Assembly: GCA_023485845.1 (NCBI GenBank) | Contig: JAMCZE010000007.1 | Coordinates: 11,391-75,390 of the forward strand | DNA: 64,000 nucleotides | Origin: Patescibacteria group bacterium | GTDB taxonomy: Bacteria > Patescibacteriota > Microgenomatia > JAMCZE01 | Direction of reading: 5' to 3' | Part shown: positions 5,828 to 49,870 of the stretch, piece after piece | Layout of the letters: the number at the start of each line of letters is the position of its first letter | How positions within the stretch are numbered: position 1 is the first letter of the stretch | Program-made: the position numbers and the translations under genes | Notes under the pieces: generated by a model | Told to the model about the DNA's origin: nothing | The model's database searches: none | What the model saw: only the letters and a program-made list of their open reading frames with translations

Positions 5828-6874
5828 CTACTTCATCATATACCTCGCCGCTTTGGTTTTGCCCTTTTTCTTAATTATTTTCTTCTCCATCAGATCTTTT
5901 AAGTCGCGAAGAACCGTGTCTTCGGAGACCATCGGTAGGACGTCTTTAAACTCTTGGTTGGAAAGGTAGCCAATTTTTTCAATGTGTTCCACAATTTTCA
6001 CCTGGCGTTGGTTAAGAAAAATTTGTTTGCCCGCCTGGGCTTTCAGTTTTAAATCTAGGGACAGATGTTGGACCTGCTCCCGGACCCGATTAAACTCAAT
6101 TGCTACTCCTTCGACAAAATATTCTAACCATTGGGTGACATCATGATCCGGGTTTTGGTCGGCGGTTTTAATCGCATAATAGTAGGCCCCGACGTTCTTG
6201 TCATAGTATTCTTCTAAGGAAAAGAGTTTTCGAATGTCATAACCCTCGTTTAGAAGAATTAAGGTCGCCATCGCCCGGGAAACCCGGCCATTGCCCTCGG
6301 TGAACGGGTGGATGTTGACAATCGCGTAGTGGGTCACGCCGGCCTTAATAATCGGGTGCAGATCCCGGGTGGAGGGATCATTAATCCAGTCAAAAAAGTC
6401 CTCCATTTGGTAGGACACTTCCACGGCCGGGGGCGGCCGATGGACGATTTCGCCCGTTAAAACATCGCGCAGCACCACCTGCACTTTGCGCCACTTCCCC
6501 ACTTCCTCTTCGGGAATGATCCCCGCCACTGTTAATTTATGAAGCTCTCTTAGGGTGTCCTGATTATAAATATTCTTCTCACCCGACAGCTTCTCTAAAT
6601 AATCCAACACCTTGCGATAATTAACTACTTCTTTAACGTCCCGATCGCGGGCCACAATCTCTTTTCCCTCCATCACTTTCTTCACCTCTTCCAAGTTAAG
6701 TTCGTTGCCCTCGACATGAGTGCCGTAGTGCACCGCCCGCAGTTGGGCATCTTCGACAAACTTTGCTTCCCAGGCCGGTAGGAGCGCCGCCCCCTCAATC
6801 ACTGCTTTGGCCCCTTCCACCAACCCGATATCCTTTAATAACTTTGAGGTGATAGTAAATTTTGGCTGATACAT
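5828..6874 (-). CDS. Fic/DOC family protein (AMPylation-type Fic domain with C-terminal winged helix)
   Basis: Canonical Fic motif HPFTEGNGRVSRA in a 348-aa protein. Confidence 0.8.
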   Translation of the reverse strand: MYQPKFTITSKLLKDIGLVEGAKAVIEGAALLPAWEAKFVEDAQLRAVHYGTHVEGNELNLEEVKKVMEGKEIVARDRDVKEVVNYRKVLDYLEKLSGEKNIYNQDTLRELHKLTVAGIIPEEEVGKWRKVQVVLRDVLTGEIVHRPPPAVEVSYQMEDFFDWINDPSTRDLHPIIKAGVTHYAIVNIHPFTEGNGRVSRAMATLILLNEGYDIRKLFSLEEYYDKNVGAYYYAIKTADQNPDHDVTQWLEYFVEGVAIEFNRVREQVQHLSLDLKLKAQAGKQIFLNQRQVKIVEHIEKIGYLSNQEFKDVLPMVSEDTVLRDLKDLMEKKIIKKKGKTKAARYMMK

Positions 6875-36943: not shown

Positions 36944-38071
36944 TTAGACAAGTTCCACACTGTGGGCGCGACTTTCCAGAAGACCGGCGTGGGTGATTTG
37001 CAAAAACTGGGCCTTTTTCCATAACTGTCTAATATCGGCCGCCCCGCAATAGGAAAATCCGGAACGGATCCCGGCACACAGCTCATCTAAAACCGGCCCC
37101 ACCGGACCCTTGTAGCGCACCAAAGCCTCCACCCCTTCAATGTGCAATTTAAAATGCGGTTTCTGACCATTATGTTTTTTCAGCTGCCGCTCTTTTTCCA
37201 ACTTTGAAGTTGAACCATTATATTCTTTATAAACCACGCCGTCTTTTTTCACCACTGTGCCAGGAGCTTCATCGGTGCCCGCCAGTTGCGAGCCGACAAT
37301 CACGGCGCTGGCCCCCAGAGCCAGGGCCTTAACAATGTCCCCGGAACTTTTGGTTCCTCCGTCGGCAATAACAAATTTGTTTTTAAATTTCCTGGCCGCC
37401 GCCACCGCAGCCTCAATCGCCGTCACTTGGGGCACGCCGCAGCCGGTCATCACCCGCGTGACGCAAATCGTGCCCGCTCCCACCCCCACCCGCACTCCGT
37501 CGGCGCCATGGGCAAAAAGGTCCGCCGCCCCCTCCTGGGTGGCAATCACACCGGAAAGCAGCGGCAGTTTGGGAAATTTATTCTTCAGTTGGGCCGTTAT
37601 CTCCAAACAGTGAGTCATGTGCCCATGGGCCACGTCCACCGTCAACCCGTCAGCCCCGGCCGCCACGCAAAATCTTGCCCGGGTCATGACATCATCACGA
37701 AGACCCAGGGCCGCAAAGACCCGTTGGCCGGTTTTTTTAACCGCCGCTATGTTGGCCGCCTGACCTTGGGGCCCGTCAAACCGCGGCATTAAAGCCAGAC
37801 CGCCTTTTTGAGACATCACCGTAGCCATTGCCACGCCCGTGACCGTGTCCATGTTCACGGAAATAATGGGAATATCCAGAAAAAATCCGGGGGCGATTTC
37901 TGTTTTTAAATTAACATCGGCTCGGGAGACAATTTCCGACCGTTGCGGAACCAAAAGAATATCGTCAAAAGACAAACCAAACGGAATCTTCATCAGCCGG
38001 GGGCGAACTCTTCCCTTTTTAATAATATGCGATAACCAGACCGGGCTGTCAATAACCAGTTTTATTTCCAA
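36944..38071 (-). CDS. guaB: IMP dehydrogenase/GMP reductase family protein (no CBS insert)
   Basis: Catalytic loop [20 protein letters not shown] (IMPDH active-site Cys region) and a TIM-barrel phosphate-binding GGxGxxGD-like C-terminus. Confidence 0.8.
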
Positions 38072-38580
38072 ACCGTTTCTTTGGCCCCTTTTTTAAAATT
38101 CACCCACCGGGCCAGGCAGAAAAGATAATCGGAGAGTCGATTTAAATATTTAAGAATAGGTTCTAGTGACTGGTGACTAGTGGCTAGCTGCACAACGCTG
38201 CGTTCGGCCCGCCGGGCCACAGCTCTAGCCAAGAACAGTTCGTTATTGGGCAAAATGAAATTTGCCAGTTCCGGCATCTGGCCCCACATGTCATCAATTT
38301 CTTCCTCCATTACCAGCACTTTTTCTTCCAGTTTTAGATCTTTTCCGGTATAGCCGGCAATCACACTGCCGATCGCAAACAAGTCTTTTTGAATTTCCAC
38401 CAACTTGCTTTCCTGCTTACTTGCTTTCCTGCTTTGGATAATTACTCCCAGGTGTGAATTTAATTCGTCAAGCGTGCCCACCGCTTCGATGCGCGGATCA
38501 GTTTTTGAAAGTCTCACCCCACCCAGCATCCCCGTCTCCCCGGCATCCCCTTTTCTGGTATAAATGCTTGCCTTTGTCAT
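38062..38580 (-). CDS. cob(I)yrinic acid a,c-diamide / cob(I)alamin adenosyltransferase, PduO-type
   Basis: N-terminus IYTRKGDAGETGMLGG matches the PduO/MMAB motif IYTRTGDKGETSL. Confidence 0.8.
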   Translation of the reverse strand: MTKASIYTRKGDAGETGMLGGVRLSKTDPRIEAVGTLDELNSHLGVIIQSRKASKQESKLVEIQKDLFAIGSVIAGYTGKDLKLEEKVLVMEEEIDDMWGQMPELANFILPNNELFLARAVARRAERSVVQLATSHQSLEPILKYLNRLSDYLFCLARWVNFKKGAKETVWK

Positions 38581-38966
38581 TTTTTAATCTTTTGACAATG
38601 CTTCTTAAACCATGAGGCGATTTCGGCAATTTCAGGTCTGGTTCGCTCCACGAACAACGGGAAATTGGCCGCTTCGTCATTGGTGGCAGAAAACTTATAG
38701 CCATTCAAAAATAATAATCGGTCGGCGCTAAATAGGGCTGCCCGTTTATTGCCGTCCACAAATGGATGATCAAAGATTATCCCATGAAGCAAAGCCGCCG
38801 CCTTCTCAAAAATGGTCACATAAAGGTCTTCCCCACCAAAACTCGCTTGGCAACGAAAAACAGCAGAATCTAGCAAATTATCGTCGCGAATTCCCAATGT
38901 GCCGCCGAACATCTCCACATATCGGTCATGCAATTCCACCACATCGCTCACCGAGAGGTGTTTCAT
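38577..38966 (-). CDS. doc: Doc (death-on-curing) toxin, Fic-fold
   Basis: HPFVDGNKRAALFSA Doc/Fic motif. 129 aa. Confidence 0.8.
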   Translation of the reverse strand: MKHLSVSDVVELHDRYVEMFGGTLGIRDDNLLDSAVFRCQASFGGEDLYVTIFEKAAALLHGIIFDHPFVDGNKRAALFSADRLLFLNGYKFSATNDEAANFPLFVERTRPEIAEIASWFKKHCQKIKK

Positions 38967-39202
38967 CCTGTTGCTAGCTTCTTAAGGGCCGGAGCATACT
39001 TCTTCGCTGTTTGATTTAACCAATGATCGAACTCCGAAGAGATTTCCCTCTTACTGGCTTTTGTCGGACGATAGGCAAAACTATGGTCAACCAAATATGG
39101 CTCCACCTTATCGCCCGGTCGGAGAGTGACACTCCTCGCAGCAAGCTGCGAGGCATCTGCATTGCTAAAATAGCCTGAGTTGGTCTTTTGATATTTGGAC
39201 AT
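38963..39202 (-). pseudogene. probable remnant of the Doc-partner antitoxin, N-terminally disrupted by IS200 insertion (chimeric ORF)
   Basis: The first ~27 codons (MSKYQKTNSGYFSNADASQLAARSVT) lie inside the IS copy and are identical to the start of ORF 48221-48475. Only the downstream ~52 codons are unique and directly precede doc. Confidence 0.5.
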
Positions 39203-39670
39203 AGTCTTTTGGTCTTCCTTGGTTTCTGATGTACTTTTGGATGACTGTCTCAGAATTGCTTCGTCCTACTGAATTTACGAAATACCCGTCAGTCCAAAAC
39301 TGGGCTCCCCAAAGGCTTTCCCTCAACCCGGCAACTCGTTTGAGAAGTTCCCGGGCCAGGATACTTTTGACCGTTCTGGCAATTTTGGTAGGAGAATATG
39401 TAGGCACTGACTGGATCAAAAAATGGACATGATCACCGTCGGCCCCAATCTCCACAAAATGCATCTCGTACCTTTGGGAAATTTCCTGACAGATCTGTTT
39501 TAGTTGGGCATCCACCTCTGTCGAGATCACGAGTTGCCTTCCCTTGGCCACACAAACCAGATGGTACAAAAGCACCGAGACATTGTGCGCTTTGTGTATG
39601 TAGATACTCACGCATACAATTTTACCCTCTCGCGGCAAAGCCGCGGGGAATGAACCCTAAAAGAGATTCA
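39125..39670 (-). mobile_element. IS200/IS605-family insertion sequence, copy A (~546 bp, tnpA only); ends +/-2 bp
   Basis: Identical to 48398-48943. Subterminal hairpins cctcgcagc-aa-gctgcgagg and ctcgcggc-aaa-gccgcgggg. Encodes a Y1/HUH transposase. Confidence 0.85.
39165..39638 (-). CDS. tnpA: IS200/IS605 family transposase TnpA (HUH Y1)
   Basis: DGDHVHFLI (HuH motif) and the catalytic Tyr region WTDGYFVNSVG. 157 aa. TTG start. Confidence 0.85.
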   Translation of the reverse strand: MPREGKIVCVSIYIHKAHNVSVLLYHLVCVAKGRQLVISTEVDAQLKQICQEISQRYEMHFVEIGADGDHVHFLIQSVPTYSPTKIARTVKSILARELLKRVAGLRESLWGAQFWTDGYFVNSVGRSNSETVIQKYIRNQGRPKDYVQISKDQLRLF

Positions 39671-39795
39671 GTTTTGTTGCCACCTCTCGGGGCACCGAAA
39701 CGGCCCAAGTGTTCCCTGCCTTGAAAATTGTTAAAGTCATGTTAGAACAGATGTTATAACATCCATTATTTTCTGTCAAGTGCTAAAATATATTC

Positions 39796-40188
39796 ATGTT
39801 CAAAGTCCCGAAGAAAACATCAGTTTGGAAAACGCCGTTTAATTCGCCGGTGGGGCACATGACCTTTGCGCCGGAATTAATTAAATTCATTAAGCAAAAA
39901 AATAAGTATCGTACTTATCGTTTCGCTGATGAAAAATATTCCGCAATTAAAGTCGGTGACATTGTGGCCATCAAACAAAATTTTATTGAGGAGCCGATCA
40001 GTCAAGCAAGAATCACCCAAGTAGCAAAAGTCAAGTTCATTGGTCTGCCGTATAAAACAGAAGGTGCCCACGAAAGCTGCGACAGCAAGGAACACCAGCG
40101 GAAAGTTTTAAGTGGCTACTATGCCTACCTTGGCCGGCCAATTCAGGACGACGACCCCTTCGTCGTCATTGATTTTGAGTTAATTTAG
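39796..40188 (+). CDS. ASCH-domain (PUA-like) protein
   Basis: 130 aa with the beta-barrel ASCH pattern ...YRFADEKYSAIKVGDIVAIK... Moderate. Confidence 0.45.
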   Translation: MFKVPKKTSVWKTPFNSPVGHMTFAPELIKFIKQKNKYRTYRFADEKYSAIKVGDIVAIKQNFIEEPISQARITQVAKVKFIGLPYKTEGAHESCDSKEHQRKVLSGYYAYLGRPIQDDDPFVVIDFELI

Positions 40189-47270: not shown

Positions 47271-48224
47271 TCATTTTGCTAGATTTGGTGGGGGTTCTCC
47301 GGAGAGGGCGGCGATGATGTTTTGGGCGGCCAGACGGGACATTTCCGCCCGGGCTTCAGCCGTTGCCGAGCCGATATGCGGCGTTAACACCACATTAGGC
47401 AGACCAAAAAGCTTTTGATTAACCATTTTCTCCGATGAGGTCAGATCAATGTTGGCTTCTTCTTCAAAAACATCCAGGCCTGCTCCGGCAATCCATTTTT
47501 CCGAAAGGGCGGTGATCAAGGCCGCTTCATCAATGACTGCCCCCCGAGCGGTGTTAATGATAATGGCTGTTTTTTTCATCGCCGACAACTGCGGTTTGGA
47601 AATCAAGTGTTTTGTTTCCGCGGTCAAAGGCACGTGGAGCGTCACCACATCGGCCGTTTTTAATAGTTCATCCAGACTGTCGCAAAAAACCGCCCCCATT
47701 TCTGCCTCTGTTTGCATGTCCGGTTTATGGGAGTGATAAAGCACCTGCATGGAAAAGCCATAATGGGCAATCTTGGCCACATAGGAACCGATCCGCCCCA
47801 TCCCCACAACCCCAATGGATTTTCCGTAAAGCTGCTCCCCAATAAACAACTCCGGCTGCCAGCATTTATATTGGCAATCCCGGACAAACCGGTCGGCGTC
47901 CACAATCCGGCGCGCCACTGCCAAGATTAACGCAAAGGTATGCTCCGCCACCGCCTCAGTGAAACCGCCGGGGGTGTTGGTGACATAAACGTGGCGCGCC
48001 TTGGCGGCCTCCAGATCAATGTTGTCAAAACCAACGGCATAGTTGGCAACAATTTTCAATTGCTTTCCAGCCGCGTCCATCATCGCCCCATCAACCTTGT
48101 CCGTCAACAACGATAAAATCGCGTCCGCCCCGGAAAAATCCGTCCCGACAACCACGTCATGACCAGCCTTTTTTAACATCTCCTCTGCCGGTCCGGGAAT
48201 TTTTTGTGTTATAACGACTTTCAT
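47271..48224 (-). CDS. D-isomer-specific 2-hydroxyacid dehydrogenase (phosphoglycerate/glycerate dehydrogenase-like)
   Basis: NAD-binding VGMGRIGSYVA (GxGxxG) and the catalytic R/E/H arrangement. 317 aa. Confidence 0.8.
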   Translation of the reverse strand: MKVVITQKIPGPAEEMLKKAGHDVVVGTDFSGADAILSLLTDKVDGAMMDAAGKQLKIVANYAVGFDNIDLEAAKARHVYVTNTPGGFTEAVAEHTFALILAVARRIVDADRFVRDCQYKCWQPELFIGEQLYGKSIGVVGMGRIGSYVAKIAHYGFSMQVLYHSHKPDMQTEAEMGAVFCDSLDELLKTADVVTLHVPLTAETKHLISKPQLSAMKKTAIIINTARGAVIDEAALITALSEKWIAGAGLDVFEEEANIDLTSSEKMVNQKLFGLPNVVLTPHIGSATAEARAEMSRLAAQNIIAALSGEPPPNLAK

Positions 48225-48397
48225 AGAAAAGCGTAAACAAATAAAATATCCAATAATAAAAACGAACCTAGTGCTATATACTCCGAAAATCGATAGGCAT
48301 CTTCCCTATTCATTTTGAATATTCCTACCGTCCTTAGTTCTCGATCTTTAAGCATAAAATTATGACTCATGTGCCAGACTGCCATCAAGAAAACTGT

Positions 48398-48943
48398 AGT
48401 GACACTCCTCGCAGCAAGCTGCGAGGCATCTGCATTGCTAAAATAGCCTGAGTTGGTCTTTTGATATTTGGACATAGTCTTTTGGTCTTCCTTGGTTTCT
48501 GATGTACTTTTGGATGACTGTCTCAGAATTGCTTCGTCCTACTGAATTTACGAAATACCCGTCAGTCCAAAACTGGGCTCCCCAAAGGCTTTCCCTCAAC
48601 CCGGCAACTCGTTTGAGAAGTTCCCGGGCCAGGATACTTTTGACCGTTCTGGCAATTTTGGTAGGAGAATATGTAGGCACTGACTGGATCAAAAAATGGA
48701 CATGATCACCGTCGGCCCCAATCTCCACAAAATGCATCTCGTACCTTTGGGAAATTTCCTGACAGATCTGTTTTAGTTGGGCATCCACCTCTGTCGAGAT
48801 CACGAGTTGCCTTCCCTTGGCCACACAAACCAGATGGTACAAAAGCACCGAGACATTGTGCGCTTTGTGTATGTAGATACTCACGCATACAATTTTACCC
48901 TCTCGCGGCAAAGCCGCGGGGAATGAACCCTAAAAGAGATTCA
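48398..48943 (-). mobile_element. IS200/IS605-family insertion sequence, copy B (identical to copy A); ends +/-2 bp
   Basis: 100% identical over ~546 bp to 39125-39670. The tnpA ORF 48438-48911 is identical to 39165-39638. Confidence 0.85.
48438..48911 (-). CDS. tnpA: IS200/IS605 family transposase TnpA (HUH Y1), second copy
   Basis: Protein identical to 39165-39638. Confidence 0.85.
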   Translation of the reverse strand: MPREGKIVCVSIYIHKAHNVSVLLYHLVCVAKGRQLVISTEVDAQLKQICQEISQRYEMHFVEIGADGDHVHFLIQSVPTYSPTKIARTVKSILARELLKRVAGLRESLWGAQFWTDGYFVNSVGRSNSETVIQKYIRNQGRPKDYVQISKDQLRLF

Positions 48944-48982
48944 AACAGATTAAGAACACTAAAGCTATTTTCTTCTCAAAGA

Positions 48983-49870
48983 TCATATTTTATTTGCTGA
49001 ACCGAATAATTTGATTTTTTCTTCAACGACGGCCTGCATGGCGGCGATGGCCGCGGGCATGATTTTATAGATGGCGACTTCTCCGCCAGCTGGCGGACCC
49101 GGTGCATCTAATGTCTCTTTTAGCTTATCACGAAAAGCGAGGCGCAACTGCGTATTAACATTAATTTTTTGGACCCCAATGCCGATGGCCGCCGTGATTT
49201 CGTTGGCGGGAATCCCGGAACCGCCATGAAGAGAAAGGTACGTTTGGCCGAGCCTAGCTTTAATTTCCCGGAGCAAATCAAGGTTAATATTCTTAGTTTG
49301 TGCATACATTCCATGTACGTTTCCAATAAAAGAAGCGAGGGTATCAATCTGCGTTTTCTCGACAAAATCAGCGGCTTTGGCCGGGTCGGTGTAATATTTA
49401 GGGTCCCGGACAACATCAATGTTTTTTCCCCGGTGGTCGGCGCTGCCCGCCCCCAAAACGTTAATGTTGTCAATCTCGCCTTCGACTAAAACCCCCTTCT
49501 TATGTGCTTCGTCTGCCAATCGTCTGGTTTGTCTGATGTTCTCTTCGATGTCCAACTTCGAGCCGTCAAGATGAAGGTAATCAAACCCTGCTTCCAGGGC
49601 CACCCGGCAGTGGTCATAGTCCGGGGCGTGGTCTAAATTTAAAATGATCGGCACACCATTGCTTTGTTCCATCACCCGAGTGGCCCCGACCAGCTCCTTG
49701 ATGCCAAAATATTCGGCCTCACCCGGCGAGGCTTCAATGATCACCGGGGATCGCAAATTTTTTGCCGCCCCAACGATGGCCTTGAGAGTTTCAATGGAAG
49801 CAGCGTTGAAAGCCCCGATCGCAAAATGCTCGTTTTTTGCCCGCTCAAACCAATATTTGGCCTTGCTCAT
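48983..49870 (-). CDS. fba: fructose-bisphosphate aldolase, class II
   Basis: HFAIGAFNAASIE...NLDHAPDYD...HLDGS...HGGSG zinc-aldolase motif series. Confidence 0.85.
   Translation of the reverse strand: MSKAKYWFERAKNEHFAIGAFNAASIETLKAIVGAAKNLRSPVIIEASPGEAEYFGIKELVGATRVMEQSNGVPIILNLDHAPDYDHCRVALEAGFDYLHLDGSKLDIEENIRQTRRLADEAHKKGVLVEGEIDNINVLGAGSADHRGKNIDVVRDPKYYTDPAKAADFVEKTQIDTLASFIGNVHGMYAQTKNINLDLLREIKARLGQTYLSLHGGSGIPANEITAAIGIGVQKINVNTQLRLAFRDKLKETLDAPGPPAGGEVAIYKIMPAAIAAMQAVVEEKIKLFGSANKI

Follow-up and report, generated by a model that had tools for sequence, protein, structure and literature searches.

Seamless insertion of a small IS200-group element into the AbrB/MazE-type antitoxin gene of a doc module in a Patescibacteria genome

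The DNA analysed here, referred to as the window, is a stretch of 64,000 nucleotides of contig JAMCZE010000007.1 (positions 11,391–75,390) from a Patescibacteria metagenome-assembled genome (MAG; GCA_023485845.1), and positions are those of the window unless another locus is named. Its minus strand carries a toxin–antitoxin module in which the antitoxin gene is interrupted by an insertion sequence (IS). In minus-strand order, the locus comprises the module promoter, a short open reading frame (ORF) formed by the 5′ part of the antitoxin gene, IS copy A, a 79-aa ORF, the toxin gene doc, and a gene of the cobalamin adenosyltransferase family. The original prediction, made from the sequence of the window, had described an IS200-type element inside the antitoxin gene of a doc module, producing a chimeric ORF with an IS-derived N-terminus. 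This description proved right, as did the positions of doc (38577–38966) and of the ORF that precedes it (38963–39202).

The 5′ part of the antitoxin gene (39666–39740, minus strand) starts at an ATG at 39740 and encodes residues 1–25 (MTLTIFKAGNTWAVSVPREVATKLN), which correspond to β1, β2, and α1 of an AbrB/MazE DNA-binding domain; its frame now ends at a TAG (39657–39659) after two IS-encoded codons. The 3′ part (38963–39124, minus strand) encodes residues 26–78 and the stop codon, i.e., β3–β4 of the AbrB-like domain and the conserved C-terminal helix. It lies within the 79-aa chimeric ORF (38963–39202, minus strand), listed at NCBI as hypothetical protein M1484_02370 (P0003), where 26 IS codons starting from the ATG at 39202 are followed by antitoxin codons 26–78. 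The IS-derived leader, MSKYQKTNSGYFSNADASQLAARSVT (39125–39202), is exactly 26 codons long and is followed by 53 locus-specific codons, so that the IS-derived start had been recognized correctly and only the earlier counts of about 27 and 52 are adjusted. The same 26-aa leader also opens ORF 48221–48475 at a second copy of the IS, as had been noted before. Since the first 25 codons persist upstream of the IS, the antitoxin gene is split by the element and is not N-terminally deleted; the replacement of its N-terminus, as originally proposed, holds for the chimeric ORF, but the loss of the 5′ part does not, the 25 codons at 39666–39740 having been overlooked.

In silico removal of 541 bp joins 39666–39740 to 38963–39124 in frame and yields a 78-aa protein; the reconstructed empty site reads ...GCAACAAAACTGAAT/CTCCGACCGGGC..., the slash marking the junction. 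The reconstructed antitoxin passes the threshold of Pfam PF04014 (MazE/SpoVT-AbrB) with 30.7 bits against a cut-off of 24.7 bits, whereas the 5′ fragment by itself reaches 17.1 bits and the chimeric ORF gives no match. Judged from these scores, the SpoVT/AbrB (MazE) DNA-binding domain is broken as encoded today. By its sequence, the antitoxin is of the AbrB/MazE type found in composite mazE-doc modules. Of the two types considered in the original prediction, AbrB and Phd/YefM, the latter was dropped: Pfam and PDB sequence searches returned MazE, PemI, and AbrB but no Phd/YefM, and no significant match of the window antitoxin to Phd was found in them.

The homology of the remnant to antitoxins, on which the original prediction had rested, is borne out by uninterrupted relatives. 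Two uninterrupted 78-aa homologs, P0001 and P0002, share 79% identity with the reconstructed protein along its whole length; their genes (loci L004 and L005) each precede and overlap a downstream doc through an ATGA, as in the window. At the DNA level, the reconstructed antitoxin gene aligns with L004 and L005 across the junction without gaps. L005 also has a divergent upstream gene of 130 aa, the length of the ASCH-domain gene in the window, and a gene overlapping the doc stop codon.

IS copy A (39125–39665, minus strand) is 541 bp long and carries tnpA only; it runs from CTCTTTTAGGG... on the left to ...GAGTGTCACT on the right. IS200 measures roughly 700 bp; the present element, with tnpA alone, is smaller. 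Copy B (48398–48938, minus strand), also 541 bp, is 100% identical and lies 9273 bp away. The two copies are identical over 39125–39670 and 48398–48943, but the first five nucleotides of this identity, TGAAT (39666–39670 in copy A, minus strand), are a common target and lie outside the IS. A third 100% identical copy was found on another contig, JAMCSA010000010.1, of a Patescibacteria MAG (GCA_023378825.1; locus L007, positions 2447–2987). The ends of the element were fixed by comparing these three copies with two related elements, L008 (TnpA 84% identical) and L011, and TGAAT stands directly 5′ of the left end in all of them. An alternative boundary, giving a 538-bp element with target TGAATCTC, was rejected, because it would add a Leu residue absent from all antitoxin homologs; moreover, L008 diverges directly after TGAAT.

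The tnpA gene (39165–39611, minus strand) has a GTG start and encodes a 148-aa Y1 (HUH) transposase matching PF01797 (E = 4.7e-34; 117.6 bits against a cut-off of 23). As read from the translation, its HUH motif is HVH and the catalytic Tyr lies within QKYIRNQ. The protein is identical to NCBI entry P0006, annotated as "IS200/IS605 family transposase", and recorded on 7 contigs; its closest relatives are 84–86% identical. Both ends of the element contain a GC-rich subterminal hairpin. The right-end hairpin (CCTCGCAG-CTTG-CTGCGAGG; 39134–39153, minus strand) ends 9 nt short of the IS tip and is conserved in related elements, and the left-end hairpin (CGCGGC-TTT-GCCGCG; 39631–39645, minus strand) is conserved in L008 and L011. 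No terminal inverted repeats of the IS were found in the window. There is also no target duplication: removal of the 541 bp rejoins both the antitoxin gene and the serine recombinase gene interrupted at L007 in frame, with zero extra bases. The element belongs to the IS200/IS605 family, IS200 group. Since the three copies at different sites are 100% identical, the IS appears to have been recently active by transposition.

The left end of IS200/IS605 elements "always inserts 3′ to a tetra- or pentanucleotide target", and their excision is precise (PMC5027513). The present element resembles IS200/IS608 (PMC5027513, PMC3201880) in its Y1 HUH transposase, in the subterminal hairpins at both ends, in the lack of inverted repeats and target duplication, and in its fixed short target, here TGAAT. 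Its orientation likewise matches the lagging-strand template, as for IS200/IS608: plus-strand GC skew is uniformly negative over the whole window (about −0.10), and 30 of the 43 long ORFs, as well as both IS copies, lie on the minus strand. Searches of the genome and JGI metagenome contig collections did not recover the exact 24-nt right end, and exact-protein look-ups gave nothing on record for a 157-aa version of TnpA, the ASCH-domain neighbor, or the chimeric ORF P0003. The nearest related IS with a usable contig (L008/L012, CAZRUW010000096.1), with a TnpA 84% identical and the same TGAAT target and leader ORF, is carried by a contig of 2.9 kb that was assigned to an "uncultured Gammaproteobacteria" MAG; this suggests horizontal spread or mis-binning.

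The doc gene (38577–38966, minus strand) is intact and encodes a 129-aa protein with a Doc-type Fic motif, HPFVDGNKRAAL (HPFVDGNKR). The product matches Pfam PF02661 (E = 3e-16), and its PDB matches are 9vzc_A from Enterococcus faecalis, the best (E = 2e-12), and P1 Doc (3k33). P1 Doc and the window Doc are homologous, with 30% identity and a common catalytic motif, and the window protein keeps every residue invariant with P1 Doc. The motif reads HPFVDGNKR in the window, HIFNDANKR in P1 Doc, and HCFYNANKR in 9vzc_A, and the E. faecalis and window Docs share the pattern HxFx(D/N)(A/G)NKR. Furthermore, the window Doc is 78–79% identical to and colinear with the Docs of the uninterrupted loci L004 and L005. 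This conservation shows no sign of inactivation of the predicted toxin, which would act through EF-Tu phosphorylation; the inactive Doc entertained as an option in the original prediction finds no support in it. At its start, doc shares an ATGA with the stop of the chimeric ORF; at its stop, it overlaps the beginning of a cobalamin adenosyltransferase family gene (38062–38580, minus strand), which follows in the same transcription unit. Elsewhere in the window, a second Fic-domain protein is encoded (5828–6874, minus strand; 348 aa), which has a canonical HPFTEGNGRVSR motif of the GNGR type and a C-terminal DeoR-like HTH and is unrelated to the doc module.

To locate the cut on the antitoxin fold, an AlphaFold model of the homolog P0002, built with a 20-member family alignment, was used (mean pLDDT 79). 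The model contains β-strands at residues 5–8 and 11–14, an α-helix at 18–23, further β-strands at 32–37 and 40–45, and a helix at 55–77 (pLDDT about 90). The cut after residue 25 falls in the middle of the N-terminal DNA-binding domain and removes β1, β2, and α1, whereas β3, β4, and the whole C-terminal helix stay in the chimeric ORF. Across the family alignment, the conserved positions are an N-terminal GNS..V.IP and a C-terminal EF..WL...KKYG.AL.ELA. Aligned with 9vzc_B, the family profile is covered from end to end (E value about 3e-6).

By analogy with homologous systems, the C-terminal helix would be the Doc-binding module. The best PDB match for both window proteins, at a similarity that is low for the antitoxin (profile E about 3e-6), is the chromosomal "Phd"-Doc module of E. 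faecalis (9VZC, 9VYB, 9VX7; PMC13034048), whose antitoxin of about 79 aa has, as here, an AbrB-like N-domain and a C-terminal helix that inserts into Doc. In that antitoxin, residues 1–55 form the DNA-binding domain, and in 9VZC order is seen only for residues 52–79, which form a bent helix lying in the concave groove of Doc (PMC13034048). Unlike its E. faecalis counterpart, the antitoxin gene in the window belongs to a Patescibacteria MAG and is interrupted by an IS behind residue 25, and its product is predicted to bind and neutralize Doc. A similar picture emerges for Phd-Doc of P1 and Salmonella (3K33, 3DD7; PMC9207808): the C-terminal segment of the window antitoxin starts with E-F followed by hydrophobic residues, as does Phd 52–73, although Phd has the Phd/YefM N-terminal fold and the window antitoxin the AbrB/MazE fold. 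The 22-residue C-terminal peptide of Salmonella Phd (residues 52–73) is sufficient to bind Doc (Kd 73 pM), to inhibit its kinase activity, and to restore growth (PMC9207808). The composite mazE-doc type was first described as TasA-TasB (Fico and Mahillon 2006, PMC1626090). The window module shares with it a MazE/AbrB-type antitoxin, with a conserved modular N-terminal DNA-binding domain, and a Doc-type toxin, TasA being likened by type and not by sequence alignment. However, TasAB is plasmid-borne in Bacillus, while the locus in the window is interrupted and stands first in a housekeeping operon of the chromosome.

The module promoter (39751–39779, minus strand; TTGACA, 17 nt, TAACAT) is the only sigma-70-like site in 38400–40000. 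Its −10 box is overlapped by a perfect 12-bp palindrome, ATGTTATAACAT (39751–39762, minus strand), and the start codon follows only 10 nt past the −10 box, leaving the mRNA nearly leaderless. L004, L005, and L006 retain the palindrome, the promoter with its −35 box, and the very short distance to the start codon. Because this conservation spans four loci, the window included, that are otherwise only about 70% identical, the palindrome is probably the operator of the antitoxin, which would repress its own promoter; the E. faecalis module likewise recognizes a single palindromic operator. A scan of the IS found no convincing terminator. No initiation region of its own is recognizable for doc. 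Within the chimeric ORF, an internal TTG at 39094, with GGAG 6 nt before it, may serve as an alternative start and would give a 43-aa product.

The junction was also found outside the MAG. Three Logan assemblies (SRR10267473, SRR10252151, and SRR10278331) contain 100% identical DNA across the junction between the IS right end and the antitoxin, which is the junction that this evidence covers. The Logan contigs begin 27 nt inside the IS right end and run through the 3′ part of the antitoxin gene into doc; such a start is typical of contigs broken at a repeat. Given the third identical IS copy and the identical junction in these assemblies, the sharing of the leader between the two ORFs of the window is not due to chance. 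The exact intact 78-aa antitoxin allele was absent from a collection of 5.8 billion proteins, and no empty-site contig or protein was found in the searches made.

These observations are best accommodated by the following scheme. A recently active 541-bp IS200-group element would have inserted 3′ of TGAAT in an AbrB/MazE-type antitoxin–Doc module by the single-strand "peel and paste" transposition of IS200/IS605, which makes the insertion seamless and, in principle, precisely excisable. The cut after codon 25 would destroy the repressor function but leave the Doc-binding C-terminal helix untouched. The 3′ part of the antitoxin gene would then be read as the 79-aa fusion from the ATG in the right end of the IS, or possibly from the internal TTG at 39094. 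Transcription would most likely start at the native promoter (39751–39779), presumably de-repressed because the DNA-binding domain is split, and proceed through the co-oriented IS. The fusion, or the shorter product from the TTG, would neutralize Doc. Since doc has no initiation region of its own and is coupled to ORF 38963–39202, both proteins would be made or neither; Doc would thus appear only together with the neutralizing C-terminal module, and the insertion would be tolerated because neither outcome is lethal. We favor, with moderate confidence, the reading that the fusion still neutralizes Doc and that autoregulation has been lost, where expression, neutralization, and the loss of autoregulation are all inferred.

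The original prediction had seen in this locus an orphaned Doc and a state that should be lethal. Neither view is supported: the C-terminal helix is retained in an ORF that is still coupled to doc, and the loss caused by the insertion is confined to the first half of the N-terminal DNA-binding domain and spares the helix that binds the toxin in 9VZC and Phd. The insertion is ordinary and explainable, and there is no lethal paradox.

Several points nevertheless weigh against neutralization by the fusion. In Salmonella, growth recovered more slowly with the C-terminal peptide alone than with full-length Phd (PMC9207808), and in E. faecalis, neutralization has been linked to antitoxin-mediated dimerization of Doc, while the fusion is without the dimerizing N-domain. 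With 26 foreign residues and half a β-domain, the fusion could also be unstable or degraded. Translation may begin at the IS-borne ATG at 39202, but this start is putative; Shine–Dalgarno-like 4-mers are no more common upstream of the long ORFs than in the background (6/43 versus 15%), and such motifs therefore give no guidance on it. Finally, the MAG and the three Logan samples may share a study or source.

The IS-borne ATG was also compared among other insertions. It lies 78 nt from the tip of the element, and its frame crosses the right-end hairpin and continues beyond the IS. Copy B splits a small 74-aa ORF (5′ part 48939–48986, 3′ part 48221–48397, minus strand) located between aldolase and 2-hydroxyacid dehydrogenase genes, with its ATG overlapping the aldolase stop and its stop overlapping the dehydrogenase start (ATGA at both ends). 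This ORF contains two hydrophobic, possibly transmembrane stretches (MIFEKKIALVFLICLN and TVFLMAVWH...) and has no Pfam match; here the IS-borne ATG (48475) fuses in frame to the 3′ part, giving the 84-aa ORF 48221–48475. At L007, the IS divides a large serine recombinase of 559 aa after ...FNELN into a 393-aa N-terminal ORF and a 194-aa leader fusion (ATG 2910), and the L008 element, located in a Ham1-like gene, forms a 158-aa in-frame fusion (ATG 599). All four known insertions of the close subgroup thus follow the AAT of xTG-AAT in the sense direction and in codon phase 0 and are in frame with the IS-borne ATG, whereas outward ORFs occur in only about 4 of 57 more distant IS relatives. Yet, TGAAT in a sense gene is limited to two codon phases, since an in-frame TGA is a stop codon, and the null expectation for an in-frame fusion is 0.53 per sense site, or 0.29–0.43 per site on that strand. 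With a post hoc p value of 0.007–0.08 for four of four (n = 4) and so high a null, a significant bias toward in-frame fusion was not retained. A search for other proteins with the IS-derived leader peptide returned the chimera alone. That the right end of this IS subgroup serves as a portable translation restart, keeping the 3′ part of a split gene and the genes coupled to it translated, is accordingly a doubtful proposition. If true and selected, such a restart feature or insertion bias would account for the survival of a host after an IS has entered an antitoxin gene.

Other explanations of the locus do not require a neutralizing fusion. The module may instead be silenced, the 3′ part of the antitoxin gene not being effectively translated, the coupled Doc not being made, and a dead module being left to decay. 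This is consistent with the overlap of doc, which has no recognizable initiation region, with the upstream stop codon, and with the rarity of outward ORFs among distant IS relatives. The IS-borne ATG, furthermore, lies inside a TAT-GTC (Tyr-Val) pair at the TnpA C-terminus; it is also present in L008 and L011 and may be incidental. However, an uninterrupted, in-phase reading frame starts at the ATG at 39202, and the genes following doc (adenosyltransferase and IMPDH-like), which overlap or adjoin it, presumably need transcription through the region. Neither half of the antitoxin gene nor doc shows decay, although the insertion may be too recent for that. Taken together, silencing seems to us a possible but rather unlikely explanation. 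Neutralization of Doc in trans by a paralogous antitoxin, or a Doc harmless in this host, with the antitoxin gene dispensable in either case, is less likely still. Several toxin–antitoxin paralogs per genome are common, and the MAG is incomplete, with 64 kb and one other contig inspected. On the other hand, tblastn detected no second antitoxin homolog in the 64-kb window, in disagreement with an intact antitoxin elsewhere in it, as the original prediction had allowed, and a database search with the reconstructed antitoxin returned the chimera as the only protein attributed to this MAG. The sole other Fic-domain gene (5828–6874) encodes a Fic protein of the different, GNGR type, and a harmless Doc is difficult to reconcile with its conserved catalytic motif and full length.

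Two further possibilities concern the status of the allele itself. The assembly might have captured a transient or deleterious population variant, present in Doc-arrested cells or destined to revert by precise excision. Elements of the IS200/IS605 family do excise precisely (PMC5027513), and the 100% identity of the three IS copies points to recent activity. Still, a growth-arresting allele should not dominate assemblies, and the same junction recurs in three other read sets with no empty-site counterpart found; we therefore consider such a variant quite improbable. Repeats are a classic cause of misassembly, and a repeat misplaced into the antitoxin gene would produce a false junction. Such an artefact is, however, highly improbable here: both junctions are exact, the flanks rejoin in frame to a conserved gene, the TGAAT target agrees with that of the other copies, and independent Logan contigs run from the IS right end into the 3′ part of the antitoxin gene.

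Apart from the IS, the window contains diverged direct repeats with 70–96% identity (54849–55396/58795–59276, 907–1006/1221–1320, and 60011–60061/61021–61071). The first pair resembles two paralogous genes, and its segments translate to VKTGTTEDKRDNWTIGY.

Both the IS200/IS605 element and the composite mazE-doc module are of known kinds, and current concepts are unchanged by the present locus. What is new is this instance, namely the seamless insertion of an IS between the repressor half and the neutralizing half of an antitoxin. The locus provides an example, from a Patescibacteria genome, of a very small IS200-group element with recent activity and the target TGAAT, and the insertion has placed tnpA under a presumably de-repressed toxin–antitoxin promoter. 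It also represents a natural domain dissection of a type II antitoxin, in which the two halves have been parted while the toxin is intact. A broken antitoxin beside an intact toxin, as may be met in a genome scan, therefore need not be paradoxical; the key lies in the position of the break relative to the neutralizing module and in the translational coupling of the toxin to that module.

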